Origin: Mustelus asterias
Taxonomy: Eukaryota
DNA length: 64,000 nt
Direction of reading: 5' to 3'
NCBI RefSeq assembly: GCF_964213995.1
Contig: NW_027590119.1
Location: 1,364,001-1,428,000 of the forward strand
Below are positions 5,374 to 57,810 of the stretch, piece after piece. The position numbers were made by a program, and so were the translations under genes. The notes under the pieces were generated by a model, which saw nothing but the letters and a program-made list of their open reading frames with translations, made no database searches and was not told the origin of the DNA. Every line of letters begins with the position of its first letter. Within the stretch, counting starts at the first letter, position 1.

Positions 5374-6433
5374 TCAGACCTGGATATGATTAACAGCATC
5401 AATAAGTGTAGAATCCAAACCTTGCAGTCCCTTGTGAACTCGCCGGTGTGTTAGCAGGTGGGATGACTGAATAAATCCCTTTCCACAGACATTACAGGTG
5501 AACGGCCTCTCCCCACTGTGAACTCGCTGGTGGTTCAGAAGATAAGATAAATGAGAAAATCCCTTCCCACAGACAGAGCAGGTAAATGGCCTCTCCCCAC
5601 TGTGAACTCTCTGATGTGTCAGCAGGTTGGATGACTGACTGAATCCCTTCCCACACATGGAGCAGGTGAACGGCCTCTCCCCAGTGTGAACTCGCTGGTG
5701 GTTCAATAGGTTGGATGAAAGAGTGAATCCCTTCCCACACACGGAGAAAGTGAATGGCCTCTCCTCACTGTGAACCTGCTGGTGTGTCAGAAGGTTGGAT
5801 GAATTAATGAATCCCTTCCCACAGTCTGAGCAGGTGAAGGCCTCTCCCCAGTGTGAATTCTCTGGCGGTTCAGTAGGGCAGATGGACGGCTGAATCCCTT
5901 CCCACACACACAGCAGGTGAATGGCCTCTCCCCAGTGTGAGTATATTGGTGCGTCAGCAGATCCTTTTTGTTTTTAAAGCTCTTCGCAGTCGGAACAATT
6001 AAAAAGTTTGTTGTCAGAGTGAACAAGTTGATGTGTCTGCAGGTGGGATGACTGAATGAATCCTTTCCCACACACAGAGCAGGTGAATGGTCTCTCCCGT
6101 GTGAATACGTTGGTGTGTCAGCAGATCTTTTTTGCATTTAAAACTCTTCCCACAGTCAGAACATGTAAACATTCTCTCATCAGTGTGAACAAGTTGGTGT
6201 GTCACAATGTGGGATGAGCGAGTGAATCCCTTCCCACACACAGGGCAGGTGAACGGCCTCTCCCCAGTGTGAACCCGTTGGTGAGTCAGAAGGTTGTATG
6301 AATGGGTGAATCCCTTCCCACAAACGGAGGAGGTGAATGGTCTCTCCCCAGTGTGACTGCACCAATGAACTTCCAGTTGTGATGGGAAACTGAATCCCTT
6401 CCCGCACTCCACACATTTCCACGGTTTCTCCAT
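5374..6433 (-). pseudogene. C2H2 ZNF pseudogene, 12 fingers, paralog of 39017-39997
   Basis: Starts MEKPWKC; three frameshifts (~6095, ~5985, ~5840) and two Cys losses (TSSVC, TFSVC). Confidence 0.9.
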
Positions 6434-13017: not shown

Positions 13018-13149
13018 AAAGAGCAAGGGGGGGAAAGGAGCAGGGGGGGGGGGGGGCGGGCGGGAGAGCAAGATTGAGAGAGAGAAAGATTGAGAGAGAA
13101 AGATTGACAGAGAGAGAGAGAGAAAGATTGAGAGAGAAAGAATCCAACC

Positions 13150-13905
13150 CCTGTAATCACTTGTTGGTGTCTCTGCAGGTTGGATGACCGATTGAATCCC
13201 TTCCCACACACAGAGCAGGTGAACGGTCTCTCCCCGGTGTGAACTCGTTGGTGTCTCCACCGTGTGGATGACCTCCTAAACCTCTTTGTGCAGTGAGAGC
13301 AGCTAAACGGTCTCACGTCAGTGTGAATGGGTTGGTGGTTCATCAGTTCCTGAGGGCTTTTGAAGCCACTCCCACAGTCAGAGCATTTAAAGGGTCTGTC
13401 TTGGGTGTGAGTGACCTTGTGGCTCAACAGGTTGGGCAACTGAGTGAATCCCTTCCCACACACAGAGCAGATGTACGGTCTCTCTCTGGCATGAACCCGT
13501 TGGTGTGTCAACAGATTGTTAACCGAGTGAACTCTTTCCCACAGTCAGAGCAGGTGAATGGCCTCTCCCCGGTGTGAACTCGCTGGTGTACCCGCAGGCT
13601 GGATGACCTTCTAAACCTGTTTGTGCTGTGAGAGCAGCTGAACGGTCTCTCCTCACTGTGAATGCGCTGGTGGGACACCAGTTCCCCAGAGCTTTTGAAG
13701 CTACTCCCACAGTCAGAGCATTTAAAGGGTCTCTCCTGGATGTGAGTGAGATTGTGTTTCAGCAGGTTGGATAACTGACTGAATCCCTTCCCACAGACAC
13801 AGCAGGTGAATGTCTCTCTCCAGTGTGACTGCGCCGATGAGTTTCCAGTGCAGATGGGAACCTGAATCCTTTCCCACAGTCCCCACATTTACACAATTTC
13901 TCCAT
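13150..13905 (-). pseudogene. C2H2 ZNF pseudogene, 9 fingers
   Basis: [10 protein letters not shown] start at 13905; frameshifts at ~13812 and ~13510; one Cys lost (SCSHS). Confidence 0.88.
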
Positions 13906-20262: not shown

Positions 20263-20616
20263 GGGGCGGCGCGGTAGCACAGTGGTTAGCACTGCTGCTT
20301 TACAGCTCCAGGGACCTGGGTTCGATTCCCGGCTTGGGTCACTGTCTGTGTGGAGTTTGCACGTTCTCCTCGTGTCTGCGTGAGTTTCCTCCGGGTGCTC
20401 CGGTTTCCTCCCACAGTCCAAAGATGTGCGGGTTAGGTTGATTGGCCATGCTAAAATTCCCCTTCGTGTCCTGAGATGCGTAGGTTAGAGGGATTAGTGG
20501 GTAAATATGTAGGGATATGGGGGTAGGGCCTGGGTGGGATTGTGGTCGGTGCCGACTCGATGGGCCGAATGGCCTTTTTCTGTGCTGTAGGGTTTCTATG
20601 ATTCTATGAGTCTATG
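20263..20616 (+). mobile_element. HE1-like tRNA-derived V-SINE with a CR1-type tail
   Basis: A box GGTAGCACAGTGG, B box GGTTCGATTCC, V-domain GGGTTTCCTCCGGGTGCTCCGGTTTCCTCCCACAGTCCAAAGA, (ttctatga)n tail; absent from copy A. Confidence 0.9.
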
Positions 20617-22598: not shown

Positions 22599-22940
22599 GG
22601 GTGGCACGATAGCACAGTGGTTAGCACTGCTGCTTCACAGCTCCAGGAACCTGGGCTCGATTCCCGGCTCGGGTCACTGTCTGTGTGGAGTTTGCACATT
22701 CTCCTCGTGTCTGCGTGGGTTTCCTCTGGGTGCTCTGGTTTCCTCCCACAGTCCAAAGATGTGTGGGTTAGGCTGATTGGCCATGCTAAATTTGCCCCTT
22801 AGTTTTCTGAGAAGTGTAGGTTAGAGGGATTAGCGGGTAAAAATATGGAGGGATATGGGGGTAGGGCCTGGGTGGGATTGTGGTCGGTGCAGACTCGATG
22901 GGCCGAATGGCCTCTTTCTGCACTGTAGGGTTTCTATGAT
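22599..22940 (+). mobile_element. HE1-like V-SINE
   Basis: Same family as 20263; 5-bp TSD TCAGT; absent from copy A. Confidence 0.9.
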
Positions 22941-24828
22941 TCAGTAACTGATCCAAAGACACAGCTGGCTATATCTGCGAATGGAAACTCTGAACAGAAA
23001 TAACTGACTCATTTGTAAATGTCACCACAATGTGACCTGTGTGACTCTGCCCTGACTCTGTGGACAGATATCGGCCGCATTGACAGATGTTCTCAACAGA
23101 TTGTTGTGCCTGGATTTATTTTCTGCTCAGAAGCGAGATGTGAGGTTTGGAACCGGCAGCAGAGAAACAGGAAGTTGTGTTACCTGAGAATGAAACAGCC
23201 GGCATCAGTTTGATGTTATAACTGTGAACAGTCTTCCTGCCTGTGAGGGTGAACTCACTCTGACAGCATCAAGAACAACCACACAGATTGCTACTGGTCT
23301 CAGCATTACATTCACCTCCATTCCCATTTTAAACAATAAAGAAAGGAGATTATTTGGATTTTTAACACATTCACTGAATTGGGAGATGGACTGAGGGTCA
23401 TCACTGGGAGAAATGAGGAGGGATTAGAGAACAAATGAGTTTTCCCAAAGAGGTTTATTAGAAAAGAGGAGATTTAAAGTGAGTCAGGGCCTGTCAGAGG
23501 AAGTGGGAGAGAGAAACAGAGAGGATTGAATCTCCATCAATTAGATGTTTTCTCAGACAGCAAAGAGAGATGAAGTGTGTTTGTGCTTTTTCAGAGAGAG
23601 ATAACGAGAGAGAGAAAACAATGAATAAGTTTAAGCATTATCTGAAATAGGAAGGTTAAATGAGTGAGTGTTTGAAAGAACGATAGAGAGACATTAAGTG
23701 ACGAAGACAGTTTCTGAGAGGAGAGAGGTTAAGTGAAAATGAGAGAGGAGTGAGGTTAGAGTGTAAGAGAGGTGGAAGGTGAGGTAAGTGTGAGTGAATG
23801 CCTGGAGAGAGAGAGAGACGTTCAGTGAGTGTTAGAGAGATGAGAGATGTTGAGCGATTGAGTTTCTGAGAGAGAGGAGATGTTGAGTGAGTGAATGTCT
23901 GAAAGAGAGGAGAGGAGGTTCACACACCCAGGGATCACTGAGAATAATCAAAATAAGGAGATCACCCAGAAAACTACCAACAGGAAACTTCAGCTGAACA
24001 CATCACTCATTCTGAAATGGTCAGTCAGGGCTCTGATGCTGCTCAGCTTCTCTCTGTTCTGTTTATAATGGTTAAAGGCTGATAGGAGTGAGGTTTATTT
24101 AGAAGGATAGTGTATGGGAAGCACACAACAAAACTGAGAATTCTTGGACACACACTGCAGCTCCTTCTCTATCTGGGAATCAAATTGTTGTCTCATTGTC
24201 CCAGCAGTTAACAGGGTCCTTTGAACTTCTCCAGCTGCTACTTTAATGCAGACTTCAACCAATTTATTTGAAGCCAGTTTCTGTTCAATAAACCAGGACT
24301 GACACACACACACATTAAAATGTTTTAGACTTTTTTTCATTTTTAGTCTGGAAACCTAAACCTGCCGTTTCACTCTCAGTCAGGAATAGATCCCAGTTTT
24401 ACACCAATCTTTGACAGCATGTTTCCAGCATTCACCGTTGTTCTTCCTGACTCTAAACACAGTTGTAAAGGACCTTCTTTTCCGTGTCTAGGAGCTCGGA
24501 ACCATGGAAAAGAGCGACTGGGACACATTTTTTTCACACCTCAGGATTCACCCACACAGGGACTTTGCTGTCAGTGAAAAGTGACGAAAAAGACCAAAGT
24601 GCTGTTTGTCCCTCTCGGCGAGACCCTGAAGGACTGGGTCAAGAATGAAGTTCTGTTCCTACTGTATGATCCTCCCTCAGATTGCCCTTTCTGAGCTCCA
24701 GCCTGGTGACGTTAAACACTCAAATGGAAAAGACAAAAATCTACAACAATGATTCAATCAAATGTCTATTTCACATTTATTCAGAATATCAAATCTCAAC
24801 AGAAGAAAAAAGTCAGAGTGAACATGAT

Positions 24829-25978
24829 TCAGACCTGGATATGATTAACAGCATCGATAAGTGTAGAATCCAAACCTTGCAGTCCCTTGTGAACTCGCCG
24901 GTGTGTTAGCAGGTGGGATGACTGAATAAATCCCTTTCCACAGACATTACAGGTGAACGGCCTCTCCCCAGTGTGAACTCGCTGGTGTTTCAGAAGATAA
25001 GATAAATGAGAAAATCCCTTCCCACAAACAGAGCAGGTAAATGGCCTCTCCTCACTGTGAACTCTCTGGTGTGTCAGCAGGTTGGATGACTGACTGAATC
25101 CCTTCCCACACGTGGAGCAGGTGAACGGCCTCTCCCCAGTGTGAACTCGCTGGTGTGTCAGGAGATTGTATGAACGGGTGAATCCCTTCCCACACACGGA
25201 GCAAGTGAATGGCCTCTCCTCACTGTGAACCTGCTGGTGTGTCAGGAGATTGTATGAACGGGTGAATCCCTTCCCACATTCAGAGCAGGTGAATAGTCGA
25301 TCCCCTGTGTGGAGCTGCTGGTGTATCAGAAGGTTGGATGAATTAATGAATCCCTTCCCACAGTCTGAGCAGGTGAAGGGCCTCTCCCCAGTGTGAATTC
25401 TCTGGTGGTTCAGTAGGGCAGATGGGCGGCTGAATCCCTTCCCACACACACACAGCAGGTGAATGGCCTCTCCCCAGTGTGAGCATATTGGTGCGTCAGC
25501 AGATCTTTTTTACTTTTAAAGCTCTTCTCACAGTGGGAACAATTAAAAAGTTTGTTATCAGAGCGAACAAGTTGATGTGTCTGCAAGTGGGATGACTGAA
25601 TGAATTCTTTCCCACACACAGAGAGGTGAACGGTCTCTCCCCAGTGTGAATACGTTGGTGTGTCAGCAGATCCTTTTTGCATTTAAAACTCTTCTCACAG
25701 TCAGAACATGTAAACAGTTTCTCATCAGTGTGAACAAGTTGGTGTGTCACAATGTGGGATAAGCGAGTGAATCCCTTCCCACACACAGGGCAGGTGAACG
25801 GCCTCTCCCCAGTGTGAACCCATTGGTGAATCAGAAGATTGTATGAATGGGTGAATCCCTTCCCACAAACAGAGCAGGTGAACGGTCTCTCCCCAGTGTG
25901 ACTGCGCCGATGAACTTCCAATTGTGATGGGAAACCGAATCCCTTCCCACAATCCACACATTCCCACGGTTTCTCCAT
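24829..25978 (-). pseudogene. C2H2 ZNF, 13 fingers, frameshifted paralog of 39017-39997
   Basis: 1-nt deletion at ~25623 and 2-nt (TG) insertion at ~25445; net +1, so not compensating. Confidence 0.85.
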
Positions 25979-37769: not shown

Positions 37770-38390
37770 CACCCACCCGCCACATTTATCATTCCCCGCG
37801 CGCCGCCCTCTACCTTGTATTGTTCTCGCTTCCAAGTTGAAACCGTCCGTCCGCCGCCGCCATTACCCGCACTGCGCATGCTTCAGGTCCCGCCCCTCAT
37901 TCACTCCGATTGGTTGGAGGACCAGCCGCTCCCGCTCGGTCCTCCAGTCCCGCCCCCTCTTCCTATTGGTCCGGAGCTGCCGTCAATCAGTCCCCGGGCA
38001 TTGTGATGTGGAGCATGCGCAGTGTCATTGCTGGCCTTGGCGCTTGTTTGTCCCGGAGAAGCGGAGTCAGCGTTAGGCGGTGGCTGGGAGGATTTGGAAA
38101 CACTTTGTGGATCCGCAAACCCTTCAGAATCATTGTCAGCTCCCTGGTTTGCAGCTGCGGGGCTTCTCCCTCCCTCCCTCCCGGGAACAGGCCCAGGTTA
38201 ACGGCCCCATCCTGGCTCAGCCACTGGAGGATGGTTCACATCAGAGGATGGGGGAGGGGGACAATAAATAAGAGGTTACACTTTGGCCTCAAATCAATGA
38301 GGACTCTGATCTCTGGGAAGGAAGGAAACCCTGGGAGGTGGGCGGGAAGGATTCACAAACACTCGCTGGAGGCCCCAACATCCCCAATAA
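37770..38390 (+). promoter_or_regulatory. ZNF promoter cassette P5 plus leader
   Basis: Dyad at 37915-37946; NRF1/CCAAT/GC motifs; possible weak donor CAG|GTTAAC at 38197 and acceptor ttttacag at 38658. Confidence 0.75.
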
Positions 38391-39016
38391 GACCCATTGG
38401 TTTTATTGTCAGTCTGCAGACAGGAGCTGGAGAACTGAACCCAGACAGAGGAGAGGGAGGGAGAAAACTGGGAGTGGAGGAAAGAAATGGTGAGATGGGT
38501 TTGGATTTCAGCCCAGGGAGGAGGGAGAGTGTGTGGGACGGAGATTTACAGATTTGGGGGAACAAGAGAGGAAAAAATGTTCCAGACGAACTAGAATTGT
38601 CTGTTCAGAGTTTCTATCGTGTTCTGACAGTGATGACTTTTCTAAACTGTTTTTACAGGATATTGGAAGTGAAAGATTGGCAGACAGAAAATTCAAACCG
38701 GACATCACATCTGACAAAGTCATTCAGTTCCTTCGGAGCTGAATATCATTGGTCTTTGAATATAGAAAGAGAAATATTTGTCTGTTCTGCCTGTGGGCAA
38801 AGAAATTAAACATCAGTGTGACCGGAAAAGCATCGAGACAAACACACACCCGAGTGAGAGTGTTCCAGTGAACTGAATGTGGAAAGAGCTTTAACCAGTT
38901 ACACAGCCTGAAAAAACATCACAGTTCACAGCAGGGTGAAACTACGTGTATGTTGTGTGTGTGGATGAGGCTTGAACTGATCATCCAACCTGGAGAAACA
39001 CAAGGACACCCGCACC

Positions 39017-39997
39017 ATGGAGAAACCGTGGAAATGTGTGGATTGTGGGAAGGGATTCGGTTTCCCATCACAACTGGAAGTTCATCGGCGCAGTCACACT
39101 GGGGAGAGACCGTTCACCTGCTCCGTCTGTGGGAAGGGATTCACCCATTCATACAACCTTCTGACTCACCAACGGGTTCACACTGGGGAGAGGCCGTTCA
39201 CCTGCCCTGTGTGTGGGAAGGGATTCACTCGCTCATCCCACATTGTGACACACCAACTTGTTCACACTGATGAGAGAATGTTTATATGTTCTGACTGTGA
39301 GAAGAGTTTTAAATGCAAAAAGGATCTGCTGACACACCAACGAATTCACACTGGGGAGAGACCGTTCACCTGCTCTGTGTGTGGGAAAGGATTCATTCAG
39401 TCATCCCACTTGCAGACACATCAACTTGTTCACTCTGATAACAAACTTTTTAATTGTTCCCACTGTGAGAAGAGCTTTAAAAATAAAAAGGATCTGCTAA
39501 CGCACCAATATGCTCACACTGGGGAGAGGCCATTCACCTGCTGTGTGTGTGGGAAGGGATTCAGCCGTCCATCTGCCCTATTGAACCACCAGAGAATTCA
39601 CACTGGGGAGAGGCCCTTCACCTGCTCAGACTGTGGGAAGGGATTCACTCGTTCATCCAACTTATTGAATCACCAGCGAGTTCACACTGGGGAGAGGCCG
39701 TTCACCTGCTCTGTGTGTGGGAAGGGATTCAGTCAGTCATCCAACCTGCTGACACACCAGAAAGTTCACAGTGCGGAGAGGCCATTTACCTGCTCTGTCT
39801 GTGGGAAGGGATTTTCTCATTTATCTTATCTTCTGAAACACCAGCGAGTTCACACTGGGGAGAGGCCGTTCACCTGTAATGTCTGTGGAAAGGGATTTAT
39901 TCAGTCATCCCACCTGCTAACACACCAGCGAGTTCACAAACGACTGCAAGGTTTGGATTCTACTCTTAATGATGCTGTTAATCATATCCAGGACTGA
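39017..39997 (+). CDS. Intact C2H2 zinc-finger protein, 11 fingers plus a 19-aa tail, 326 aa
   Basis: ACCATGG start, 11 complete fingers, no frameshift, upstream promoter cassette. Confidence 0.92.
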
Positions 39998-40924
39998 ATC
40001 GTGTTCACTCTGACAGTCTTCATCCGTTGAGGTTTAATATTCTGAATAAATATGAAATAGACCAGCTTTGTTTTTTAAAATTGTTGTCGATTTTTGTCTT
40101 TCCCACCTGACCCCACATCACCAGGCTGGAGCTCAGAAAGGACAATCGGGGGAGGATCATATGGCAAACAGGACGCAGTCCTTCAGGGTCACAGAGAGGG
40201 ACAAACAGCACTTTGCTCTTCCTCATCTCTCTTCACGACAGCAAAGTACCCGTGTGGTTTAATCCTGAGATGTGCAAGAACCTCAGTCGCTCCCTTCTAT
40301 GTTTCAGCGCTCCTAGACCAGGAACAGAAGTTCCTTTACAACTGTGTTTAGAGTCAGGAAGAACAACAGTGAATGCTGGTAGGATGCTGCTAAATCAGAG
40401 ATTGGTGCAAAACTCGGATCTGTTCCTGACTGAGAGTGAAACGGCAGGATTAGATTTCCAGACTGAAAATGCAGAAAAGTCTAAAATATTTTAATGTGTT
40501 TGTGTCAGTGCCAGTTTATTGAACAGAAACCAGTTTAAAATAAATTGGTTAAAGTCTGCATTAAAGTAGCAGCTGGAGAGTTCAAAGGAACCTGTTATCT
40601 GCTGGGACAATTGGACAACAATTTGATTCCCAGATAAAAAGGAGCTACAGCGTGTCCAAGAATTCCCAGTTTTATTGATGAGGCTTCCCACACATTGTCC
40701 TTTTAAATAAACCTCACTCCTATCAACCTTTAACCATTATAAACAGAATAGAGAGAAGAGTGAAGCTGTGCCTGTCCCTTTAACTGGAAACTGAACAGCA
40801 TCAAGCCCCAACTGTCCCTTTAAGAATGAATGATGTGTTCAGCTGAAGATTCCTATTGGTAGTTTTCTGGGTGATCTCCTTATTTTGGATTATTCTCAGT
40901 GATCCTCAGTTGTGTGAACCTCTT

Positions 40925-41230
40925 CTCACTCACTTAATATCTCTCCTCTCTGTCAGATACTCACTTAATATCTCTCCCCTCTGTCAGGTACTCACTTAAT
41001 ATCTCTCCTCTCTGTCAGATACTCAATATCTCTCCTCTCTGTCAGATACTCAATATCTCTCCTCTCTGTCAGATACTCAATATCTCTCCTCTCTGTCAGA
41101 TACTCACTTAATATCTCTCCTCTCTGTCAGGTACTCACTTAATATCTCTCCTCTCTGTCAGATACTCAATATCTCTCCTCTCTGTCAGGTACTCAGTTAA
41201 TATCTCTCCTCTCTGTCAGATACTGACTCA
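40925..41230. repeat. 28-32-bp minisatellite, ~10 copies (CTCACTTAATATCTCTCCTCTCTGTCAGATA)
   Basis: Direct inspection; only a few degenerate units at the paralogous sites (~4260-4450). Confidence 0.9.
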
Positions 41231-41524
41231 CTTAACATCGCTCTCCTCTCAGACACTCATTTCACTTACCTTCCACCTCTACACTCAATTAAACACGCTC
41301 CTTTCACTCCCTTACCTCTCTCTCAAATACTGTCTCAGTCACTTAACCTCTATCTTTCTCTCAGACACTCATTCATTTAACTTTTTTATGTCAGATAGTG
41401 CTGAAACTCACTTAATTTTTTTATTCTCTGGTTATCTCTCTCTAAAAAAGCACCAAACACCTTCAATCTCTCTTCTCTGTCTGAGACAACATCGAATTTA
41501 CAGAGACTCAATCTTCTCTCTCTG

Positions 41525-41883
41525 TTTTTTTTATTCATATGTGGGACACAGGTGCCGCTGACTGGCCAGCATTTATTACCCATCCCTAGTTGCCCTTGTT
41601 CAGAGGGCAGCTGAGAGTCAACCACATTGCTGTGGCCCTGGAGTCACATGTAGACCAGACCGGGTAAAGACAGCAGATTTCCTTCCCTAAAGGACATTAG
41701 CGAACCAGATGGGTTTTTCTGACAATGGTTTCATGGTCATCACTCGATTCTTAATTCCAGATGTTTTGAATTGAATTCAAATTCCACCATCTGCCATGGC
41801 GGTATTCGAATCTGGGTCCCCAGAAAATTTGCTGAGTTTCTGCATTAACATCTAGCGATAATACCACGAGGCCATTGTCTCCC
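41525..41883 (-). mobile_element. SacSINE1-like tRNA-derived SINE
   Basis: Minus strand: tRNA-like head, body ccatctggttcgctaatgtcctttagggaaggaaatctg, tail agggatgggtaataaatgctggcc...aataaaaaaa; absent from copies A and B. Family name recalled, not searched. Confidence 0.75.
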
Positions 41884-42884
41884 CACTTCTCTCTCCCACT
41901 TCCTCTGACAGGCCCTGACTCACTCTCATTTTCTGATCACCCTCTTTGGGGGAAACTCATTCCTTTCTATAATTTCCCCTCATCTCTCCCAGTGATGACC
42001 CTCAGTCCATCTCCCAATTCATTGACTGTTAAAAACCCAAATAATCTTTGTTTATTGTTTAACATGGGAATGGAGATGAATGTAATGCTGAGAGCGGCAG
42101 CAATCTGTGTGGTTGTTCTTGATGCTGTCAGAGTGAGTTCACCCTCACAGACAGGAAGAATATTCACGGTGATAACATCTCAAACTGATGTCGCCTGTTT
42201 CACTCTCAGGAAATACAACTTCCTGTTTCTCTGCTGCCGGTTGCAAACCGCGCATCTCACTTCTGGGCAAAAAATAAATCCAGGGGCCACAATCTGGTGA
42301 GAACATCTGTCAGTGCGGCCTATATCCATCCACAGAGACAGGGCAGAGTCACACAGGATCACATTGCAGTGACATTTACAAATGAGTCTGTTATTTCTGT
42401 TCAGAGTCTCCATTCCCGGATATAACGAGCTGTATTTGTGGATCAGTCACTGAGTTCCCTCTGCTCCCCATAGCTGGGGACTGATAGCCTGCTCCCTTAT
42501 ATTGTATATCATTCTCTCTGTATTGCTTGTTTCCTCTGTTTCTCAGCTTTTATCTCTGACCACCTCATCTTTCTGTTTTTTAAAATCTCTCTCAATGTTT
42601 CTGTCTTTCTGTCTCTCCTCTGTATCTCTCTCAGTCTCTGTGTGTTCCTATTTAACCGAGATGTTCAGCATCATGAAGGGTTTCTGATTGATTATAGAAG
42701 GAAAAACAGGGAAAAAAGCAGAAAAACTCAGCAAGTCAGAGAGAAACAGTTAACATTTTGAGTCCATATGATTCTTCAGGGCAGGAAAAACATGGGCTTT
42801 TCTGTCTTAGGTCAGGGTACGTGATGGGGAGGTTTAATAGAGGTGTTTAAAATGACAAACGATTTATGATAGTGTCAATGGAGA

Positions 42885-43075
42885 GGAACTGTTTCCCAGA
42901 AGCAGGAGGGTCTGTCGATGGGGAGAAACTTTCCCAGGTGCAGAAGGGTCTGTCGATGGGGAGAAACTTTCCCAGGTGCAGAAGGGTCTTTCGATGGAGA
43001 GAATCTATTTCCCAGGTATTGGAGGGTCTGTCGATAGGAAGAAACTGTTTCCCAGGTGCAGGAGAGTCTGTTCAC
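42885..43075. repeat. ~38-bp minisatellite, ~5 copies
   Basis: AGGGTCTGTCGATGGGGAGAAACTTTCCCAGGTGCAG units; ~2 units at the paralog 2970-3050. Confidence 0.85.
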
Positions 43076-43199
43076 AGAGGGGATACAGAGATTTAACATA
43101 ATTGACAACTTAACTGGAGAGGGTGATGAGGATGATTTTTTACACAATAATTTGATGCAATCTGGAATGTACAAACTGACAGGTGCTAGAAGCAGATTT

Positions 43200-43483
43200 C
43201 AAGTAAAGTTTATTAGTCACAAGTAAGACTTACATTAACACTGCAATGAAGTTATGTGAAATTCCCCGTGTCGCCACAGTCCGGCGCCTGTTTGGGTCAA
43301 TGCATCTAACTAGCACGTCTTTCAGAATGTGGGAGGAAACCGGAGCACCCGGAAAAACCCACGCAGACATGGGGAGAACGTGCAAACTCCACACAGTGAC
43401 TCAAGCCGGGAATTGAACCCGGCGCTGTGAAGCAGCAGTGCTAACCACTGTGCCGCCGTGTTGCCCAGCCACCGTGCTGCCCA
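43200..43483 (-). mobile_element. V-SINE with an alternative 3' tail
   Basis: HE1-like head and V-domain; tail gcagtgttaatgtaagtcttacttgtgactaataaac. Confidence 0.85.
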
Positions 43484-44294
43484 ATTTAATAGTAAATTTC
43501 AAAGAGAATTGGATAAATACTTGCAGAGGGAATTTGGCAGAACGATGGTAAATGGGATTAATTGACAGTTCACTCGTCTTTGTGACATTCTGAATGTTTC
43601 TCTCCTGAGGTTTTAACATTTGATCTTTTCAGTCACAATGTGTCTCAAACAGAAGATCAAAATATTGGGTTTGATGAGCTGTCAGATCTGTTTCCCATGT
43701 GACTGTAACTCAAGAATTGCAGATAACCATGAGAAGGAACTGATTATTTTCAGTTCCTCTCACAGGTACACCTCAATATCAGAAATCTCTGGAGTTCCCC
43801 ATGTCCTCATTATTCTCCCCTTGAGCATAACAGCTCTCAGTCAAGTAGAGTCAGTAACACATGTCTCTGCCATAATGTTTGCATTCCTATTTTCCCACTC
43901 ACCTCCCAGTGACACTCAGCATAACACACAAACCTCAAACTATCATTGCCCCCTTACATCTTGTCCTCCTCTTACAAGCAAATATTTGTTGGGCCTCTTG
44001 TCTCCCTTAATGTCAGGTTACCTGCAGGCAAAATGACCTCAGCGACACTGGAACCGATCTTTGTGATTATCATTGTTACACCAGATTCCAATCAGCCCCA
44101 GGACCTGCAGTTGTAAAATGCAGTAACATTTTAATATCAGGCAGGTTATTGTCAAATAGTAAGTGGCAGAGTGACAAATAACAGAATTGGAATATATTAT
44201 ATCAATAGACCATGACTCACTCGCTATCAAATGAGACCCAAACTTTGGTTATGGTGCACGAGATATTGACTGTATTATCATTACATTGGATCCC

Positions 44295-45478
44295 CAGGCC
44301 TAGAATACCCGACGCTAAAATGCCACCCTGACTACCTTCCATGGGAGTTCACCTCTGTTAGCCTGACAGCAGTTTACGTCCCACCCCACGCAGGCGTGAA
44401 GACGGCATTGGATGAAATATACACCACCACAAATAGCCTTGAGACGAGGCCTTGTCCTGAGGCCTTGTTCATCGTAGCCGAAACTTCAATCAGGCCAAGC
44501 TCAAGGGTGTTCTACCAAGGTACCTGCAACACATCTCCTGTTCCATCAGAGGCCCAAACATCCTAGACCACTGCTATACAAATATCAAAAATGCCGACTG
44601 CTCTATCACCAGTCCACACCTTGGAAAATCACGTCTGTGCTCCTGCTCCCAGCTTAAAAGCAAAAACTGAAATGGGAGAATCTGCCAAAGAAAGTCGTGC
44701 AATATTGGTCTGAGGAATCGGATGATCTCCTACTAGACTGCTTAGAGTCAGTAGATTGGTCAGTATTTAAAAACTCTGTGACCAGCCTGAATGAGTCCTC
44801 CACCACAGTAACTGACTCATTAGTAAGCGTGTAGAAGACTGCGTGCCAAAGAAGCAAATCCATGTGTTTCCCAACCAGAAACCATGGATGAACAGGGATA
44901 TCCACTGTCTGCTGAAGTTTAGATCTGAGACGTTCATGTCAGGCGACACTGACCTATACAAGACAGCCAGATATGATCTATGAAGATCCATCAAAGATGC
45001 CAAAAGACAGTACCGGATCAAGCTAGAATCCTAGGCTATCCACATGGATTCCCGTCGACTATGGCAAGGTCTGCAAGACATAAAAGGCTACGAGATTAAG
45101 GCAGGTAAAATCACCGGCTCCAATGCACCCCTCCCCACTGAGCTCAACACATTCTATGCCCGTTGTGAGCAAGAGGTCAGCGAGAGCACACCCTCCATAC
45201 CAGAAGCCTCGAATGATTCTGTATGTTAGGTCACCAGTGCAGACATCAGAGTAGCCTTCTCAAAAGTCAACCCATGGAAAGCAACTGGCCCAGACGGGGT
45301 ACCCCAATGAGCACTGAGGTCCTGCGTGGACCAGCTGGCAAGCGTATTCACAGACATCTTCAACCTCTCATTACAACAATCTAAGGTCCCTACCTGCTTC
45401 AAGAAGAGGACCATCATCCCGATACCAAAGAAAAGCCAGGGCAGCGTGCCTTAATGACTATCATCCGGTGGCTCTGAC
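44295..45478 (+). mobile_element. Degenerate Rex1 LINE (endonuclease end to RT start)
   Basis: [36 protein letters not shown]; many stops. Confidence 0.8.
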
Positions 45479-45479
45479 A

Positions 45480-45935
45480 AACCATCTTTTTGTGATTCAT
45501 GCACAAGGACACCCAGGTCCCTTTGCGCAGCAGCTTGCTGCAATTTATTACCATTTAAATGCATGGTTGGGGACCCCGCGCACCCCCGACATTCTCTCTT
45601 CCACCTTCTTCCATCGGGAGGGGGATGCAGAGGTCTTGAGGTCGCGTGCCGACCGACTCGAGAGCAGCTTCTTCCCGTGCTGCTGTCGGACTTTTGGGTG
45701 GGCCTATCTTGCATTGGGTTGGTCTTTCTCTGCACCCTAGCTGTGGCTGTGGCACTGCATTCTGCGCTCTCTCATTTCCTTCTCTATGAACGGTATGTTT
45801 TGTCTTTATAGCGCAGAAGAAACAATACTTTTCATTGTATGCTAAAACATGTGACAATAAAAAAAAATAGTCCATTTTGCTGTTATTCCTACCAAAATGG
45901 ATGACCTCACATTTACCAACATTGTACTCGATTTC
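45480..45935. mobile_element. CR1 fragment (-) interrupted by a Rex1 3' end (+, ~45560-45866)
   Basis: EYNVGKCEVIHFGRNNSKMDYF joins LNGNKLQ...RDLGVLVHE across an insert encoding HPRHSLFHLLPSG with a tgtgacaataaaaa tail. Confidence 0.8.
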
Positions 45936-46007
45936 TGTTGGAAAAATAGGTTGCATGCTTACTTTTTAATTATACAATGTTCAGAGCACTAAATTTGACA
46001 CACACAA

Positions 46008-46275
46008 TCATAGAATCCCTATAGTGCAGAAGAAGGCCATTCGGCCCATCAAGCCTGCACCGACAACGATCCCATCCAGGCCCTATTCCTGTAATCTCAT
46101 GCCCCAGCATGAAAGGGGCAATTTATCATGGCTAATCCACCTAACCTGCACATCTTTGGACTGTGGGAGGAAACCCACGCAGACACAGGGAGAATGTGCA
46201 AACTCCACACAGTAAACTGAGGCTGGAATTGAACCCAGGTCCCTGGCGCTGTGAGGCAGCAGTGCTGACCACATG
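46008..46275 (-). mobile_element. HE1-like V-SINE, partial
   Basis: B box GGTTCAATTCC, V-domain, CR1-type tail. Confidence 0.8.
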
Positions 46276-46399
46276 TGACCAATAATCAAGGACATGGCAG
46301 ACATGACCAGTGTGTGAATTGCTGATGAATGGTCTTGTCCCTGTTGTTCCAATCTGTGTCCACAAAGGGACAATCCAATGGCAGAGCCATTGCCCAGCA

Positions 46400-46770
46400 T
46401 TCACTGCGGGAGCTGCTGCGCATGCGCACTGTCAGGCTGTGATTGGAGCATGCGCGGTGCGGGTGCTGCAGCTTGATGGAAGCGCGAGGCGGTCGTGTGG
46501 CTTTCGCAACGGGTGAAATAAAACACCCAGTGTGGGTGGGGAACGGAGCCGGTGGGTGGAGAGATTTCATTACCACCGGACTCGGCTCGCAAAGTTCGAG
46601 TAAAAATCTAACGGTCCCCAATTTGGACCGAGACGGTTGTTCTCTCGGTGTCGGGCCGGGCTCGCCGGCCGCCATCTTTATAAGGGGCAATGTTCCGGCA
46701 AGGGCACTGCCATCTTTATAAGGGGCAATGTTCCGGCAAGGGCGCTGCCATCTTTATAGGGGGCAATACC
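46400..46770 (+). promoter_or_regulatory. ZNF promoter arm P6 with a triplicated YY1-type site
   Basis: Perfect NRF1 TGCGCATGCGCA, ATTGG, and three 38-bp units starting GCCATCTT at 46671, 46709, 46747. Confidence 0.7.
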
Positions 46771-47084
46771 AGCAGCAGGACAGAGCTTTATGCATTTCTA
46801 TGTTAAAAGCAAAATTCTGTGAGTTCTAGAAATTTGAAATAAAAACTGAAAATGGTGGATTGCTAACCTGGACTGACAATAATGTATTTACAGGATACTC
46901 GGAGGAGAGAATTCACAATTCAAAACATTGTATCTAGATTCAGTCGATTCATCAAGATCATTGACCTTTGAATGTGTAAAGAAGCTGTTCTGTCTGTGGG
47001 AAATGATTTCAGCTATCAATGTGTCTGGTATTTGGATATAAGACTGATAATTTCAAAATCAAGATTCCGCTTGACTGGAAATCA

Positions 47085-47210
47085 TGACAAAGTACTGCAG
47101 ATGCTGAAATCTGATGAAGGGTCATCCTGACTCGAAAAGTTGGCTCTATTCTCTGTCCACAGATGCTGTCAGACCTGCTGAGAGTTTCCAGCAGTTTCTG
47201 CTTTTGTTGT
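47085..47210 (+). mobile_element. Short Penelope-derived element with a hammerhead-like motif
   Basis: CTGATGA-A-GGGTCA(TCC)TGACTC-GAAA followed by cacagatgctgtcagacctgctgag; relatives at ~16700-16800, ~3140-3230, ~22228 and ~42720-42785 (-). Confidence 0.6.
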
Positions 47211-47753
47211 GACTGGGAATCAATGTGGGTGAGCAGGCACTGAGGTCTTGGGGCTAACTGGACTTGCTGTCATAGAGTCACACAGCACAGAAAGAGGTCC
47301 TTCAGCCCATAAGTGAACAAGCAAGGAAAAGATGTTCCACAGCATCAGAATTGTCTATTTAGAATTTCTGTCCTGTACTTACGAGGATTCATTTTATAAA
47401 CTCCTTTTACAGGCTATGAGAAAGGGAGGAATTCCAAACAAGAACATCAAACCAAACATGACATCCAACATCTACTCACTTGATTCATCAGCGCTTGAAT
47501 ATTGTGAACCTTTGAATGTGGAATGAGAAATGTTTCTCTGTTTCTGTCTGAGGATTTCAAACTGAAAGTTTTGAAACAATTGACTGGAAAAGCACCGAGT
47601 GAGAGTGTTCCAGTGAACTGACTGTGGAAAGAGCTTTAACCAGTTATACAGCCTGATAAAACATCACATCATTCACAGCAAGGAGAAACCATACAGTTTG
47701 GACAAGGTTTCAACTGATTGTCCAATCTGGAGAGTCACAAGGACACTGGCATC

Positions 47754-48424
47754 ATGGAGAAACTGTGGAAATGTGGGGACTGTGGGAAGAGCTTCAATTA
47801 CCCAAAGCTGAGAAAACGTTATCATTGTCACACTGGGGAGACACCATTCACCTGCTCTGTATGTGGGAAGCGATTCACTCAGTCATCCCATCTCACTGAC
47901 CATCAACTTGTACACAGTGATCAGAGACCTTTTAAATGCTCTGATTGTGAGAAGAGGTTTAAAAGCAAGAAGCACCTGGTAGCACATCAGCTTGTTCACA
48001 CTGGGGAGAGGCCGTTCCTCTGCTCTGTGTGTGGGAAGAGATTCAATCGGTCATCCCACCTTCTGACACATCAGCAAGTTCACACTGGGGAGAGACCATT
48101 CCTCTGCTCTGTGTGTGGTAAGGATTCATTCAGTCATCCCAACTTCTGAGACATCAGCGAGTTCACACTGGGGAGAGGCCATTTACCTGCTGTGAGTGTG
48201 GGAAGGGATTCAGTCAGTTGTCCGACCTTCTGGTACACCAACGAGTTCACACTGGGAAGAGGCCTTTCACCTGTTCTGTATGTCGGAACAGCTTTGCTCA
48301 GTCATCTACTCTTCAGAGACACCAACGAGTTCATACTGGAGAGAGGCCATTCACCTGCTCTGAGTGTGAGAAGGGATTCATTCAGTTATCCGACCTTCTG
48401 AGACACCAGCGAGTTCACAAATGA
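47754..48424 (+). pseudogene. C2H2 ZNF, ~8 fingers, first finger damaged and one frameshift
   Basis: MEKLWKCGDC; 1-nt deletion at ~48122. Confidence 0.8.
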
Positions 48425-48954
48425 TTGTAGAATTTGGAGTTTGTCATTGCTGCTTTTAGTGACATCCCGGACTGAACATGTGGCTGTGTAAGCTGAGGTG
48501 TGTAAGGAATGTGTCCCAGCCACGCTCTTCCATGGTTCAGTGGTCCTGGAGGCAGAACAGAAACTCCTTTACAACTGGGTTTAGAGTCAGGAAGAACAAC
48601 GGTGAATTTTGGAAATGTGATGTCAAGTCAGAGATTGGTGTTAAATTGGGATCTGTTCCTAACTGAGACTTTGAGAAGAAATAGAAATGTGGAATGAACA
48701 TTTAAAATGTTTGTGATATTCCTGATCTATCATTGTCAGACAATAACAACACTCTACATTTATATTGTCTCTTTAACAGAGTAAATGTGAAAACTGACAC
48801 TGTTTTCAGATGATGTCACTGATGGGAATATGTTGATAAGAAATAAGAGGCTAAGGCTGGAGCTCTGGAGACACCAGAGGTAAGTGTGGGAATGGGAAGG
48901 GAAGATATTATAAGTGATTCTCTGACTCTGATTAAAGAGAGAAGAATAGGTTTA

Positions 48955-49227
48955 AAGTTTAATGTTTATTTATTAGTTTCACAAGTAGGCTTAACAATTA
49001 ACATTGCGATGAAGTTACTATGAAAATCCCCGAGTCGCCACATTCCTGTGCCTGTTTGGGTACACTGAGGGAGAATTTGGCATGGTCAATGCGAACCAGT
49101 ACATCTTTTGGACTGTGGAGGAAACCAGAACATCCGGAGGAAACCCACACAGACAGTGACCCAGAATCGAACCCGAGTCCCTGGTGCTTGAGACAGCAGT
49201 GCTAACCACTGTGCCACCGTGCCGCCC
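48955..49227 (-). mobile_element. V-SINE with the alternative tail (same type as 43200)
   Basis: Head gggcggcacggtggcacagtggttagcac; tail aagcctacttgtgaaactaataaataaac. Confidence 0.85.
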
Positions 49228-49495
49228 ATGTCGAACCAGGAGAGAGTAGCCCCACCCAGCTGGACGATAGTGGAGAGGGATGGAGCAGAATGATGTGGGC
49301 GACCTTGCCAAAGGCTGCAAATAGGTCGAGGATAAAAAGGGAAAGTTCATTTTTGTTGCAGTCACATAGGATGTCAGTGCGGACTTTGATAAGAGCTGTT
49401 TCAGTAATGTGGCAAGGCAGAAACCTGATTGAAGAATTCAAATGTGGAGTTCTGGGAAAGATGGCCTTGGGTTTTGGGAGAAGACAAAACATTCA
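49228..49495 (-). mobile_element. Old L2-type RT fragment
   Basis: TETALIKVRTDIL...LDLFAAFGKVAH resembles the L2 motif STETAL...LDLSAAFDTVDH. Confidence 0.7.
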
Positions 49496-49499
49496 GAAT

Positions 49500-50390
49500 G
49501 AATGAGGGGGCGGGGCTGGAGGACCGAGCGAGAGCGGCTGGTCCTCCAACCAATCGGAGTGAATGAGGGGCGGGGCTGAGGGCGAGTTGCACTGTGGGGA
49601 TCTGGAGCATGCGCAGTGCCGATCACTGAGGATTGAGGCGGTTGAGGAAATATTCAGTCCGGGCGATAACACCGGGTAAATCAGGAATGAGTGATGGAGC
49701 CGGTGGGTGGGCGGACTTGGAGGCTTCATAAAAGTCCCGTGTAGGCCGCAAGCCCCCAATAGGAAGCTCGAATTCGATATTTGAACCGTTGAAAGGTTGT
49801 TCGGGCTTTTCCCCCGATTCAGGCCCGGGTGAACGACCGCCATCTTGACAGTGTGCGGCCGAGCGCGCGCGCAGACAGAGGGAGCTCCATGCTCAGCCCC
49901 CTCCGCCCCGATTCAGTCTGATTGGTTGGAGGACCAGCCGCTTGTGCTCGGTCCTCCAGCCCCGCCCCCTCCTCCTATTGGTCCGGAGCTGCCGTCAATC
50001 AGCTCCCGGGCATTGTGATGTGGAGCATGCGCAGTGTCATTGCTGTCCTTGTCCCGGAGAAGCGGAGTCAGCGTTAGGCGGTGGCTGGGAGGATTTGGAA
50101 ACACTTTGTGGATCCGCAAACCCTTCAGAATCATTGTCAGCTCCCTGGTTTGCAGCTGCGGGGCTTCTCCCTCCCTCCCTCCCGGGAACAGGCCCAGGTT
50201 AACGGCCCCATCCTGGCTCAGCCACTGGAGGATGGTTCACATCAGAGGATGGGGGAGGGGGACAATAAATAAGAGGTTACACTTTGGCCTCAAATCAATG
50301 AGGACTCTGATCTCTGGGAAGGAAGGAAACCCTGGGAGGTGGGCGGGGAGGATTCACAAACACCCGCTGGAGGCCCCAACACCCCCAGTA
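49500..50390. promoter_or_regulatory. Two promoter cores in opposite orientation (P7, P8) plus leader
   Basis: Dyads at 49517-49548 and 49927-49958; NRF1, CCAAT, GC and YY1 (CGCCATCTT) motifs; leader 50050-50390 near-identical to 38050-38390. Confidence 0.75.
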
Positions 50391-51274
50391 AAAAGCTGCA
50401 GCTCCCGGGTTTGCAGCTTTTTCCCGGGAGAGAGTTGGGGAAGTTTTGTGGAGACAATTCCCGGCTGGTTCAGTTAGTGGTCAATGAAGCTCAGAAATCC
50501 TGAGTCAGGATCCTCATTGGGTGGTTGTTTTATTAAAATATTATTATTCATCTGTTGAAGAAAATATTAATTTGTTTTGAAGAATCATTTTTATAGCGTT
50601 TGTGAAAATGTCCATTAAAATAGCCATTTTTCCAATGTATTTCTGATGAGAATTTTAATATTACTGATTTGGGAATTGATTCTCGGGAATGGTCATTCTG
50701 AAAATGATTATGTTTTAATTTACTCCATAATGCCAGAAGTCAGTTTGTATTTCAAATGTAATTTAGAATATCTGGGAGCAAATGTTAAAATGAGGTTTGA
50801 GACACCAGCTGCCATTACTTCCTGTGACTGATGATACCTTTGTGCCTGTGCAGGAGGTAATTCCCCTGGTGCTGTGGCACAAATAAAATGGAGCCTTTCC
50901 TCGGAACAGGTCCGTGTTAACGGTCACCGTGTTGTTTCAGTGGTGAGCAGGGGACGTGTGGCCATTGTGGTAACAACAGAGTCGGTGGGACTTCATGTCC
51001 CCTGACCTTAAAAGAAAATAATTGACTCCTTGGTTGTACAGTCAATCTGCACATGGTCTGGAGAACTGAATCCAGCCAGAGTGACAAGGCAGAGGGAGCT
51101 GGTCTCAGAGTGGAGACATGAAATGGTGGAGATGGGGCAAGGAGTTTGATTTAGACCAGGGACAAGAGAGAGTGTGTGGGATGGAGATTATAGCTCAAGA
51201 TAAATGAGATGAAGAAGTGTTCCATGGAAACTCGAATTGTCTGTTATGAATTCGTTTTTTAAGCTCTTTTTGCA

Positions 51275-52515
<1,241 letters not shown>

Positions 52516-52639
52516 TATTCTGACAATATTGGTTTGTTTCTGCTGACATTAACAATCCCTACAACTGGAATTCTGCTTTAATATTTAGTTTAATATTTCA
52601 CAATCCACAGAATAGATATATTCAAACAAGAATGAACAA

Positions 52640-53528
52640 TGTTGTGGGTTTAATCTCAGTTGTTTGGATTTAATCTCAGTTGTTTGGATTTAATCTCAGT
52701 TGTTTGGGTTTAAACCCAGTTGTTGTGGGTTTAATCTCAGTTGTTTGGATTTAATCTCAGTTGTTTGGGTTTACTCTCCGTTATTTGGGTTTAATCTCAG
52801 TGGTTTGGGTTTAATATCAGTTGTTTGGATTTAATCTCAGTTGTTGTGGGTTTAATCTCAGTTGTTTGGATTTACTCTCCGTTATTTGGGTTTAATCTCA
52901 GTGGTTTGGGTTTAATATCAGTTGTTTGGATTTAATCTCAGTTGTTTGGATTTAATCTCAGTTGTTTGGATTTAATCTCAGTTGTTTGGGTTTAATCTCA
53001 GTTGTTTGGGTTTAATCTCAGTTGTTTGGGTTTAATCTCAGTTGTTTGGGTTTAATCTCAGTTGTTTGGGTTTAATCTCAGTTGTTTGGGTTTAATCTCA
53101 GTTGTTTGGATTTAATATCAGTTGTTTGGGTTTAATCTCAGTTGTTTGGGTTTAATCTCAGTTGTTTGGGTTTAATCTCAGTTGTTTGGGTTTAATCTCA
53201 GTTGTTTGGGTTTAATATCAGTTGTTTGGGTTTAATATCAGTTGTTTGGGTTTAATATCAGTTGTTTGGATTTAATCTCAGTTGTTTGGGTTTAATATCA
53301 GTTGTTTGGGTTTAATATCAGTTGTTCTGGGTTTAATCTCAGTTGTTTGGGTTTAATATCAGTTGTTTAGGTTTAATCTCAGTTGTTTTGGGTTTAATCT
53401 CAGTTGTTTGGGTTTAATATCAGTTGTTCTGGGTTTAATCTCAGTTGTTCTGGGTTTAATATCAGTTGTTTGGGTTTAATCTCAGTTGTTTGGGTTTAAT
53501 CTCAGTTGTTTGGGTTTAATATCAGTTG
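52640..53528. repeat. 20-bp satellite, ~44 copies (GTTGTTTGGGTTTAATCTCA)
   Basis: Direct inspection. Confidence 0.97.
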
Positions 53529-53869
53529 TTAATATCAGGGATTTGTTCCCAGGAGCAGGCTGAGGGTAAGAGAGTGGGTTTTCTGACTTTAATTAATTAT
53601 TTATTTTTTCAGTTAATTTTGGGTTTAAAATCGGAGGTTTTTTTCAAAACCGGAAGTCGGGCCAGGAGAGGCCTGGGGAAGTTTTTGGAGGGTTTAAAAG
53701 CGCACCAAAGTATACAGCGGGCAGCATCGTAGCGGGCAGCAGAGTGAGTGGGAAGTTGAGTGAGCTGTCAGGGCTTTGGCTCACAGGGCTTGGACGAGCA
53801 GGGGTGAGTTTTTGTTTCCTTACACTCTTATTAACTTTTCACTGTCTTACTTGACATAAAGTGTCCAGT

Positions 53870-54799
53870 ATGAGTGTGAAACCAGTGTGTTGTTCCCAGT
53901 GTAGGATGTGGGAGGTCCTGGAGGCATCTGGCCTCCCGGACATCCACATCTGTGAGGGGTGTGTCGAGCTGCGGTTCCTGAGGGACTGTGTTAGGGAGCT
54001 GGAACTGCAGCTCGAGGATCTTAGGCTGATGAGGGAGAATGAGGAGGTGATAGACAAGAGCTATCATCAGGTGGACACACCAGGGCAACGGGAGGAGGCC
54101 AAGTGGGTGATGGCCAGGAAGGGTAAGGCTAGGGTGGTTGAGAGCACCCCAGTGGATTTGCCTCTGCACAACAAGTACTCCTGCTTGAGTACTGCTGGGG
54201 GGGACAGCCCGCCTGGGGGAAGCAGCAGTGGCCGTGTCTCCGCAGTGGAGTCCAGCCCTGTAACTCAGAGGGCTAAGGAAAAGAGGAGGAAGGCGGTATT
54301 AATCGGGGACTCGATGGTGAAGGGGACAGACAGGCGTTTCTGCGGAGGTAGGCGGGATTCTCGCATGGTGGTCTGCCTCCCTGGGGCCGGGATCCAGGAT
54401 GTCGCTAGTCGCGTCCCGGAAATCCTGAGGTGGGAGGGAGAGGAGCCTGAGGTAGCGGTACATATTGGTACCGCTGATGTGGGTAGGAAGGGAGAAGGGG
54501 TCATGAAAAGGGAGTACAGGGAATTAGGGAGACAGCTGAGAAAGAGGAAAGCAAAGGTAGTAATCTCAGGATTACTACCTGTGCCACGGGAAGGTGAGGG
54601 CAGGAATGGAGTGAGGTGGAAGATGAATGTGTGGCTGAGGGACTGGTGCAGGGGGCAGGGATTCAGGTTCCTGGACCATTGGGACCTCTTTAGGGGCAGG
54701 GGTGATCTGTATACAAAAAACGGGTGGAACTTGAATCACACGGGGACCAATATCCTGGCCGGTAGGTTGGCTAAGGTTACTGGGGAGAATTTAAACTAG
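53870..54799 (+). CDS. CR1 ORF1p: Cys zinc motif, coiled coil and SGNH-esterase-like domain
   Basis: CSQC...CEGC, LRDCVRELELQLEDL, LIGDS, CLPGA, VHIGT. Confidence 0.9.
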   Translation: MSVKPVCCSQCRMWEVLEASGLPDIHICEGCVELRFLRDCVRELELQLEDLRLMRENEEVIDKSYHQVDTPGQREEAKWVMARKGKARVVESTPVDLPLHNKYSCLSTAGGDSPPGGSSSGRVSAVESSPVTQRAKEKRRKAVLIGDSMVKGTDRRFCGGRRDSRMVVCLPGAGIQDVASRVPEILRWEGEEPEVAVHIGTADVGRKGEGVMKREYRELGRQLRKRKAKVVISGLLPVPREGEGRNGVRWKMNVWLRDWCRGQGFRFLDHWDLFRGRGDLYTKNGWNLNHTGTNILAGRLAKVTGENLN

Positions 54800-54804
54800 A
54801 TAGG

Positions 54805-57800: not shown

Positions 57801-57810
57801 GTGGTACTGA
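54805..57810 (+). CDS. CR1 ORF2p: APE endonuclease plus reverse transcriptase (~1000 aa)
   Basis: LNARS, ITETW, GDFN, SDH; KSPGPD, LDFQKAFDKV, KFADDTK; no stops. First in-frame ATG at 54895; true start uncertain. Confidence 0.93.
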   Translation: MGGGELEELTRIKELIDGVEDAGVRGITKLMVEERVQVNEGGNLDKGVEGEGVRDSSKRVQIKAGIRTLCLNARSIRNKVNELMVQISTSGYDLVAITETWLKGDQDWEMNIQGYQAFRKNRQEGKGGGVALLIRDNIRVVLRDDIGSEEQNVESLWVEMRNSRGRKTLVGVVYRPPNNNVEVGRAINKQIRDACKNGTAIIMGDFNMHIDWQTQVGKGGMEEEFLECCRNSFLEQHVTEPTRERAILDLVLCNEVGRIKDLIVKDPLGSSDHNMVEFLIQMEEEKVWSQTSVLCLNRGKYDRMRDELAKVDWESRLAGRIAEEQWRIFKEILFSSQQKYIPAKNKDCKKRENQPWITKEIKESIKIKTAAYRVAKNSGETSDWEKFKKQQRETKKAIKKGRIDYEARLAINIKNDSKSFYKYIKRNRVARVNVGPLEDERGELIVGNEDMAESLNKFFVSVFTVEDTNSLPNINDRGLAAGEILNTINVTREAVLGRLMGLKVDKSPGPDGMHPRVLKEMSEVIVDALVIIYQNSLHSGVVPVDWKTANVTPLFKKGRRQKAGNYRPVSLTSVVGKMLESIIKEEIAGHLDRNGSINQTQHGFMRGKSCLTNMLDFYEDVTRAVDGGEPVDAVFLDFQKAFDKVPHKRLLKKIRAHGVGGSVLKWIGDWLSDRKQRVGINGCFSGWRKVTSGVPQGSVLGLQLFTIYIDDLEEGTECRVTKFADDTKISGKVNRVEDGEDLQRDLDRLSEWARIWQMEYNVEKCEVIHFGGNNNKWDYYLNGNKLKHATVQRDLGVLVHETQKPSLQVQQVIKKANGMLAYIAKGIEYKSRNVLMHLYRALVRPQLEYCVQYWSPYMRKDILALEGVQRRFTRLIPEMRGLDYEERLRRLGLYSLEFRRMRGDLMETYKIMRGLDRVEAERFFPLSKEVKTRGHSLKIKGGRFKTELRRNFFSQRVVNLWNSLPAEVVEATSLNMFKARMDGFLIGKGIKGYGDQAGKWY

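Follow-up and report, generated by a model that had tools for sequence, protein, structure and literature searches.

The window analysed here comprises 64,000 nucleotides of Mustelus asterias contig NW_027590119.1 (positions 1,364,001 to 1,428,000) and contains a cluster of poly-C2H2 zinc-finger genes lying among retroelement fragments. On the forward strand, an intact C2H2 open reading frame of 326 amino acids (39017..39997, with a probable ATG start) encodes 11 fingers followed by an 18-residue tail and belongs to a group of copies referred to below as lineage A. The last finger and the Lys codon following its last His occupy 39875..39940, CGA stands at 39941..39943 where TGA stands in most paralogs, and the remaining 17 codons and terminal TGA (39944..39997) correspond by homology to the initial 54 nt of the family's 3' UTR. 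The CGA is also present in an error-free contig of run X19 spanning 39934-40319. Upstream lies a leader of decayed fingers (38659..39016, forward strand), which is probably untranslated and served as an internal control; it is preceded by a predicted acceptor AG at 38657-38658 and carries a TGA in frame at 38978, which precedes the MEKPW start by 13 codons. A Pfam search of the 39017-39997 protein returned finger families only, with no match on the tail, and a first protein search with the 39941 end retrieved two proteins, both of which matched the finger only.

The same segment follows other zinc-finger genes in the window. On the reverse strand, GGA followed by the tail and TGA was found at 5374..5430, in lineage A, and in its tandem duplicate at 24829..24885; both genes are frameshifted upstream, and the two ends are halves of a tandem duplication of about 19.4 kb. 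The duplicated units (547-14479 and 19186-33194, at ~19.4-kb spacing and 92-97% identity) contain three broken ZNF genes and retroelement pieces. On the forward strand, TGT precedes the tail and TGA at 52459..52515 in a broken copy of lineage B (61 genome matches), whose last finger is disrupted (TPLQVH) and which has one in-frame finger. Directly behind this gene end is a tandem minisatellite with a period of ~20 nt (52640-53530), and a second minisatellite array lies at ~58900-60620. An intact 16-finger gene ends in TGA followed by a tail variant of +3 nt (35121..35180, forward strand), in which TGC occupies the position of the second TGA, so that readthrough would run to the next stop at 35253. 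A frameshifted gene has TGA-TTG-TAG and a tail of -3 nt (48422..48475, forward strand), and at 32013..32033 on the reverse strand TGA precedes a truncated tail cut by a CT microsatellite, the last finger being frameshifted. An eighth copy at 13131..13165 (reverse strand), absent from the initial annotation, is the duplicate of the 32033 end and has a deletion across the last His. The seven segments reported in that annotation were all recovered with the places, codons and translations it gave. Its description of divergent paralogs sharing a peptide is right as to the sharing but not as to the divergence of the 39941, 5374 and 24829 copies, which are 94-99% identical over the last finger and tail. 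The evidence from within the window is thinner than its first appearance.

Several of the ZNF coding exons have a shared GC-rich, repeat-like segment just upstream (37769-38390, 6741-7833, 26287-27375 and 49903-50477), which showed high contig depth in runs X19 and X20. LINE-type open reading frames lie on the forward strand at 53855-57810, 17406-19103 and 61933-63749, and from their motifs we take these to be CR1-like; an open frame of 1011 amino acids at 54775-57810 has endonuclease- and reverse-transcriptase-like motifs. Further fragments are, by motifs, presumably Penelope/GIY-YIG-like (699-1373 and 19338-19973), otherwise LINE-like (8764-10026 and 28518-29873) and Tx1-like (14811-16135).

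The shared segment makes up the opening 57 nt of a 3' UTR common to the family, whose similarity extends more than 200 nt beyond the second TGA. It had been proposed that most copies end at this second TGA; the similarity runs on well beyond it, and none of the three TGA copies (0/3) would give the peptide in question by one readthrough event. The 5' side mirrors the tail, as the leader of decayed fingers differs at 0.145 per site (0.147 for the tail) with a dN/dS of 1.00. Non-coding windows showed a median divergence from the majority sequence of 0.065-0.16, a range that includes the tail's 0.10. Conservation was slightly higher in the tail than in the leader's first 153 nt (0.113 vs 0.144, p 0.004), in a sample chosen by means of a tail profile. 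In copies L045, L069 and L072 the common 3' UTR is broken just downstream of the tail by a tRNA-derived SINE-like sequence, at about the same site in the latter two.

With anchors at the last His and the tail end, a search pattern matched the genome 510 times and its control not at all, a result far above chance. This pattern biases the sample, missing the 61 matches of lineage B. TGA-TGA was found in 321/510 copies and a first base other than T in 61/510; 37 had T followed by a base other than G, 34 of them TAA (counted manually, with the gap window shifted by one base), and three had TGC-TGA with a 2-nt deletion, so that approximately 443/510 have a stop at the variable codon. A second sample was drawn from seven 200-kb blocks and the window (1.46 Mb). 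Here 142 profile hits reached the tail, of which 14 short or weak hits were dropped, leaving 128, and removal of 11 near-duplicates left 117 copies non-redundant at 95%. The profile was seeded from 34 stop-ending arrays and favours well-conserved tails, and some of the 5' anchors may belong to a neighbouring gene. The codon was TGA in 82 of these copies, TAA in 13 and sense in 19, with three copies gapped at the codon and excluded; a stop is therefore present in 95/114. The initial annotation placed every sense variant one substitution from TGA, which is correct for 15/19 non-redundant sense copies but fails for GAA (twice), CAA and CAT; three more of the 19 are one step from TAA. The stop is kept in 41/50 genes with at least seven in-frame fingers vs 48/57 broken genes, and a sense codon was found in 9/50 intact genes; the tail is coded in about one-sixth of genes. 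Among intact sense copies, CGA is over-represented and TGG is rare.

A tree of 84/117 copies shows the sense codons scattered, with at least nine changes of state, although the tree is unrooted and gives no direction. The control TGAs of the leader offer a comparison: they keep a stop in 62/77 copies at -39 and 63/78 at -279 (81%), and vary to TAA, TCA, TGG, AGA, GGA, TGC and CGA by single steps, like the terminal codon. As the variant spectrum and the share of stops are so similar, the changes at the terminal codon can be attributed to ordinary point mutation. TGA is likely to be the ancestral state for this expansion, judging from the spectrum of the control TGAs, the scatter on the unrooted tree and the HK-stop endings seen in other taxa. 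An ancestral CGA decaying recurrently at its CpG was considered and is disfavoured: CGA was found in four and CAA in one of 114 copies vs about half CGA at true CpG sites, where the leader keeps CGA in 30/59 and 19/47 copies. The majority tail contains no CpG.

Behind a stop, the tail evolves like non-coding DNA. Stop-copy tails gave a dN/dS of 1.00 (47 non-overlapping pairs; 66.5 synonymous and 204.5 non-synonymous changes), and those of intact genes 0.83 (p 0.25), while the last finger gave 0.55 in intact genes (p 9e-8) and 0.92 in broken ones; all these values come from pairwise and majority-sequence comparisons, with no branch-wise counts. Random deep pairings of stop copies gave 0.79 for the tail and 0.85 for the downstream UTR in the same test, and distinct tail variants fit the expectation in each frequency class (0.27, 0.20 and 0.24 vs 0.243). 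An early second stop or a non-triplet length occurs in 56/95 stop copies, including 20/41 intact ones, and the next codon is itself a stop in 28/95. Length differences, which had been described as whole codons, do not hold to this in the wider sample, where 18/32 distinct tail indels are non-triplet. The 14/32 triplet events do exceed the 10/60 seen downstream, an excess that favours the earlier description; 11/20 indels inside the GCT/GTT repeat core were triplet vs 3/12 outside it (counted manually). The commonest deletion removes 12 nt of the core in 11 copies, because a 9-nt direct repeat is spaced 12 nt apart there. The caveat in the initial annotation, that slippage in threes or conservation at the nucleotide level might produce the pattern, accounts for the stop copies, their triplet indels being concentrated in this internal 12-nt repeat.

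Open, in-frame sense tails differ from these. In 12 non-redundant copies forming six pairs, 14 synonymous and 17 non-synonymous changes gave a dN/dS of 0.37 (p 0.006), although this rests on 31 changes in one of many subsets tested, and five of the 14 synonymous changes come from a single lineage-B pair. The difference from stop tails had a Fisher p of 0.03, 2/1000 same-size subsets of stop copies reached 0.37, and the alternative frames of the open sense tails gave 1.4 and 0.81. Dividing dN/dS by codon state, as had been suggested, separates neutral stop copies from sense copies in which the tail appears to behave as coding sequence and to be mildly protected by selection. The proposal that gain and loss of the stop switches the tail is borne out to the extent of this synonymous excess, but not as regards a dedicated effector. 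All three tail indels in intact sense copies were triplet (3/3). Intact sense tails also trend towards lower hydrophobicity (-0.06, n=4, vs 0.36, n=12; p 0.059), which would fit avoidance of clearance of the BAG6 type.

Most sense copies with a non-T first base, 53/61 anchored copies by manual count, belong to lineage A (CGA/GGA). Of the 40 matches to 39900-40010 that were scored, 29 were 100% identical, counting the window itself, and the full ORF is kept at 29/30 loci, from which lineage A appears to be a single, very recent amplification. Its fingers gave a dN/dS of 0.43, which together with the intact ORF is an indirect sign that the gene may be expressed, and its tail two synonymous and four non-synonymous changes (p 0.45). 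Within lineage B, a set of 20/61 copies chosen for tail diversity plus one from the block sample (11/21 with at least nine in-frame fingers) gave six synonymous and nine non-synonymous tail changes (p 0.10). Lineages A and B include a nonsense and a frameshift variant. HLQVH closes the last finger of lineage B (L263-L282), and a double stop, TGA-TAG, terminates the tail in most of the copies fetched. The 39941 gene and a gene of the 52459 type recur approximately 12.5 kb apart on many contigs (38400-52600 in the window; C118, C128, C138, C143, C210 and C252), and an inverted GGA copy often lies 13-19 kb upstream. This multi-gene block may have been amplified very recently (~98.5% identity) or may in part represent redundancy of the assembly. 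As A and B amplify together in one block, their copy number provides no independent support for function.

In other species, the tail was recovered as protein in automated gene models from Heterodontus, Mustelus, Hemiscyllium and, partly, Pristiophorus by a profile search against 1.84 billion representatives and by a further search, both of which favoured tails. Three of the 18 Heterodontus (horn shark) models examined end in a nearly unchanged full tail. In Mustelus 2/4 models end in the tail; one of these is nearly the same as a lineage described here and is therefore not deep evidence. Models ending one residue after the last His were found in Heterodontus (8/18), Pristiophorus (2/5), Amblyraja (1/1) and a single Carcharodon model. 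Homology of these stops in other sharks and the skate is suggested by the protein models.

The initial annotation raised the possibility that stop copies have their tail switched on by readthrough of the TGA. UGA is described as the leakiest stop codon, and UGA-CUA and UGA-CGG as leaky contexts (PMC7026636). The shark copies resemble the programmed UGA readthrough described there in having UGA as the first stop and, in part of the copies, a frame open to a second stop, usually a TGA 18 codons further on; C stands at +4 in 11/82 TGA copies. They differ in an unconserved context and in an extension that often meets a double stop, evolves neutrally and is often frameshifted. UGA-CUA was found in 0/82 copies and UGA-CGG in 1/82, the commonest next codon being TGA (27 copies), and TAA, in 13/95, takes the place of the leaky codon. 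One canonical copy when folded gave no stimulatory structure (z -0.75). Together with the neutral stop-copy tails (47 pairs), the 56/95 disrupted extensions and the double stop in 321/510, this leaves a stop-skipping switch unlikely, and programmed readthrough as its mechanism the least credible of the explanations considered. Selenocysteine recoding was rejected, as R, G, C, L, S, W, E, Q and H all occur among the sense variants; as regards a SECIS element, 500 nt around one copy yielded no Rfam match. Conservation of the segment as an RNA or DNA element, be it a microRNA or protein site, a short intron at the stop or a structure, with the peptide incidental, would agree with identity that is high and even across codon positions, with the slight advantage of the tail over the leader, with the finding of the segment and downstream UTR in contigs of four organisms, and with sequences resembling splice signals, namely GT at the stop and, ~76 nt further on, a pyrimidine-rich YAG. 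Against this, a search of 500 nt around one copy gave no Rfam match and the fold was the unremarkable one given above; the 12-nt core is deleted in 11 copies, and leader windows are equally conserved. No GT-AG was seen among the 15 joints listed of 37, and contigs run unspliced across the segment, although the RNA status of these runs is a guess. A short intron was rejected on the same joints listed in four contig sets, weakly, as contigs show presence only. An element of this kind is improbable, though better placed than readthrough.

A different account takes the tail for an ancient, functional amphipathic helix at the C-terminus, a partner-binding or repressor motif that selection has kept or re-recruited in the sense lineages and that elsewhere was lost through stop gain or stayed silent. 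The low dN/dS of open sense tails, with its binomial p of 0.006 and the higher values in alternative frames, speaks for it, as do the triplet indels of intact sense copies, the near-identical tails in Heterodontus and partial one in Pristiophorus, and the amplification of lineages A and B (53 and 61 matches). The 39941 tail has a hydrophobic moment of 0.50 (p 0.0014; 7/5000 shuffles as high). The amphipathic spacing noted initially therefore stands for this copy and, less strongly, for the majority tail (p 0.034), whereas none of the five other tails tested showed it (p 0.1-0.5), so that 2/7 were significant overall. A likeness to the Sin3-interaction helices of Mad/Mxi was not upheld. The Sin3 interaction domains described for Mad1, HBP1, Pf1 and TGIF1 (PMC8657803) are likewise short, potentially amphipathic helices, C-terminal in TGIF1, but none of the 128 tails, read in either direction, contains their PAH2 consensus phi-x-x-L-phi-x-phi-A; those PAH matches that the genome gave are partial exons. 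The tail is also missing from most intact genes, and since 41/50 genes with at least seven in-frame fingers stop before it, the idea of a general substitute for KRAB finds no support. The selection signal comes from 31 changes in six pairs and one subset of many, is not significant within A or B, and sits beside a nonsense and a frameshift variant inside these lineages; the copy numbers of A and B, amplified as a joint block, are not independent, and the pattern of CGA decay misfits recurrent stop gain at a CpG. An old or re-recruited helix is thus doubtful, and we regard as slightly more doubtful the version in which the same 3' UTR was repeatedly made protein in KRAB-less shark ZNFs and selection shaped an amphipathic partner-binding helix where it is translated, 39941 included. 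In the sense lineages the tail may have an effector role. Derivation of the tail from a decayed zinc finger was also considered and rejected (alignment score 19.5 vs a shuffle mean of 18.1, p 0.32).

The explanation that we favour, with a probability of roughly 0.7, is an inherited 3' UTR with a backup TGA, in which recurrent stop loss creates an 18-residue C-terminus that is then mildly constrained. Hundreds of shark C2H2 paralogs would share their 3' end by common descent, possibly with gene conversion. TGA would be the ancestral state, with about 85% of copies keeping a stop, and repeated ordinary point mutation of this stop would lengthen the frame by 18 codons to the downstream TGA. Copies that have lost the stop would be translated with the tail, and the synonymous excess would reflect modest purifying selection on a real C-terminus (its frame, stability and lower hydrophobicity) with no dedicated effector; no programmed readthrough would be required. 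Several results sit less easily with recurrent stop loss. The dN/dS of 0.37 in sense tails is as low as in the fingers, which is strong for freshly recruited UTR; full tails occur in 3/18 Heterodontus models, the tail is slightly better conserved than the leader, and deep stop pairings gave 0.79. The tail also shows an excess of triplet indels, CGA is over-represented and the stop is no commoner in intact genes.

Extension by loss of a stop codon is an already known process, described for single polymorphic genes in yeast and fly as de novo C-terminal extension (Andreatta et al. 2015, PMC4494051; Kosinski and Masel, 10.1101/737452). In those descriptions, as here, 3' UTR becomes C-terminus upon mutation of the stop and a downstream stop ends the frame; in the shark family, relatives stop at the homologous codon (95/114) and the extension is homologous to their non-coding UTR. 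Compared with the yeast and fly cases as presented there, one homologous UTR has here been recruited at least several times across paralogs, with hundreds unrecruited. This shark instance was not found among the open-access literature listings searched. Surveillance of hydrophobic UTR-derived tails by BAG6 (Kesner et al., 10.1101/2022.07.20.500724) provides a generic reason for selection on a new tail, although in the shark tails lower hydrophobicity is only a trend (p 0.059). KRAB families are reported lost in cartilaginous fishes (PMC8455134). Tetrapod KRAB-ZNFs and cyprinid FiNZ-ZNFs, as described in PMC10547256, are similarly large, clustered poly-finger families with rapid birth and decay, but there KRAB and FiNZ define the family and sit at the N-terminus, each on a separate exon, whereas the shark tail is C-terminal, in the finger exon and coded in about one-sixth of genes.

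On the favoured reading, these results correct the annotation of the family, most members of which terminate a single residue behind their last finger. They also provide a replicated natural test of the passage from UTR to protein, in which one stretch of 54 nt drifts neutrally when a stop precedes it and seems constrained where it is coded. Should the tail bind a partner, this would have a bearing on how KRAB-less fish zinc-finger families recruit repressors, in a minority of genes only, and if it has been shaped into a partner-binding helix, it would be an effector motif caught at birth or rescue, with hundreds of silent copies as controls.
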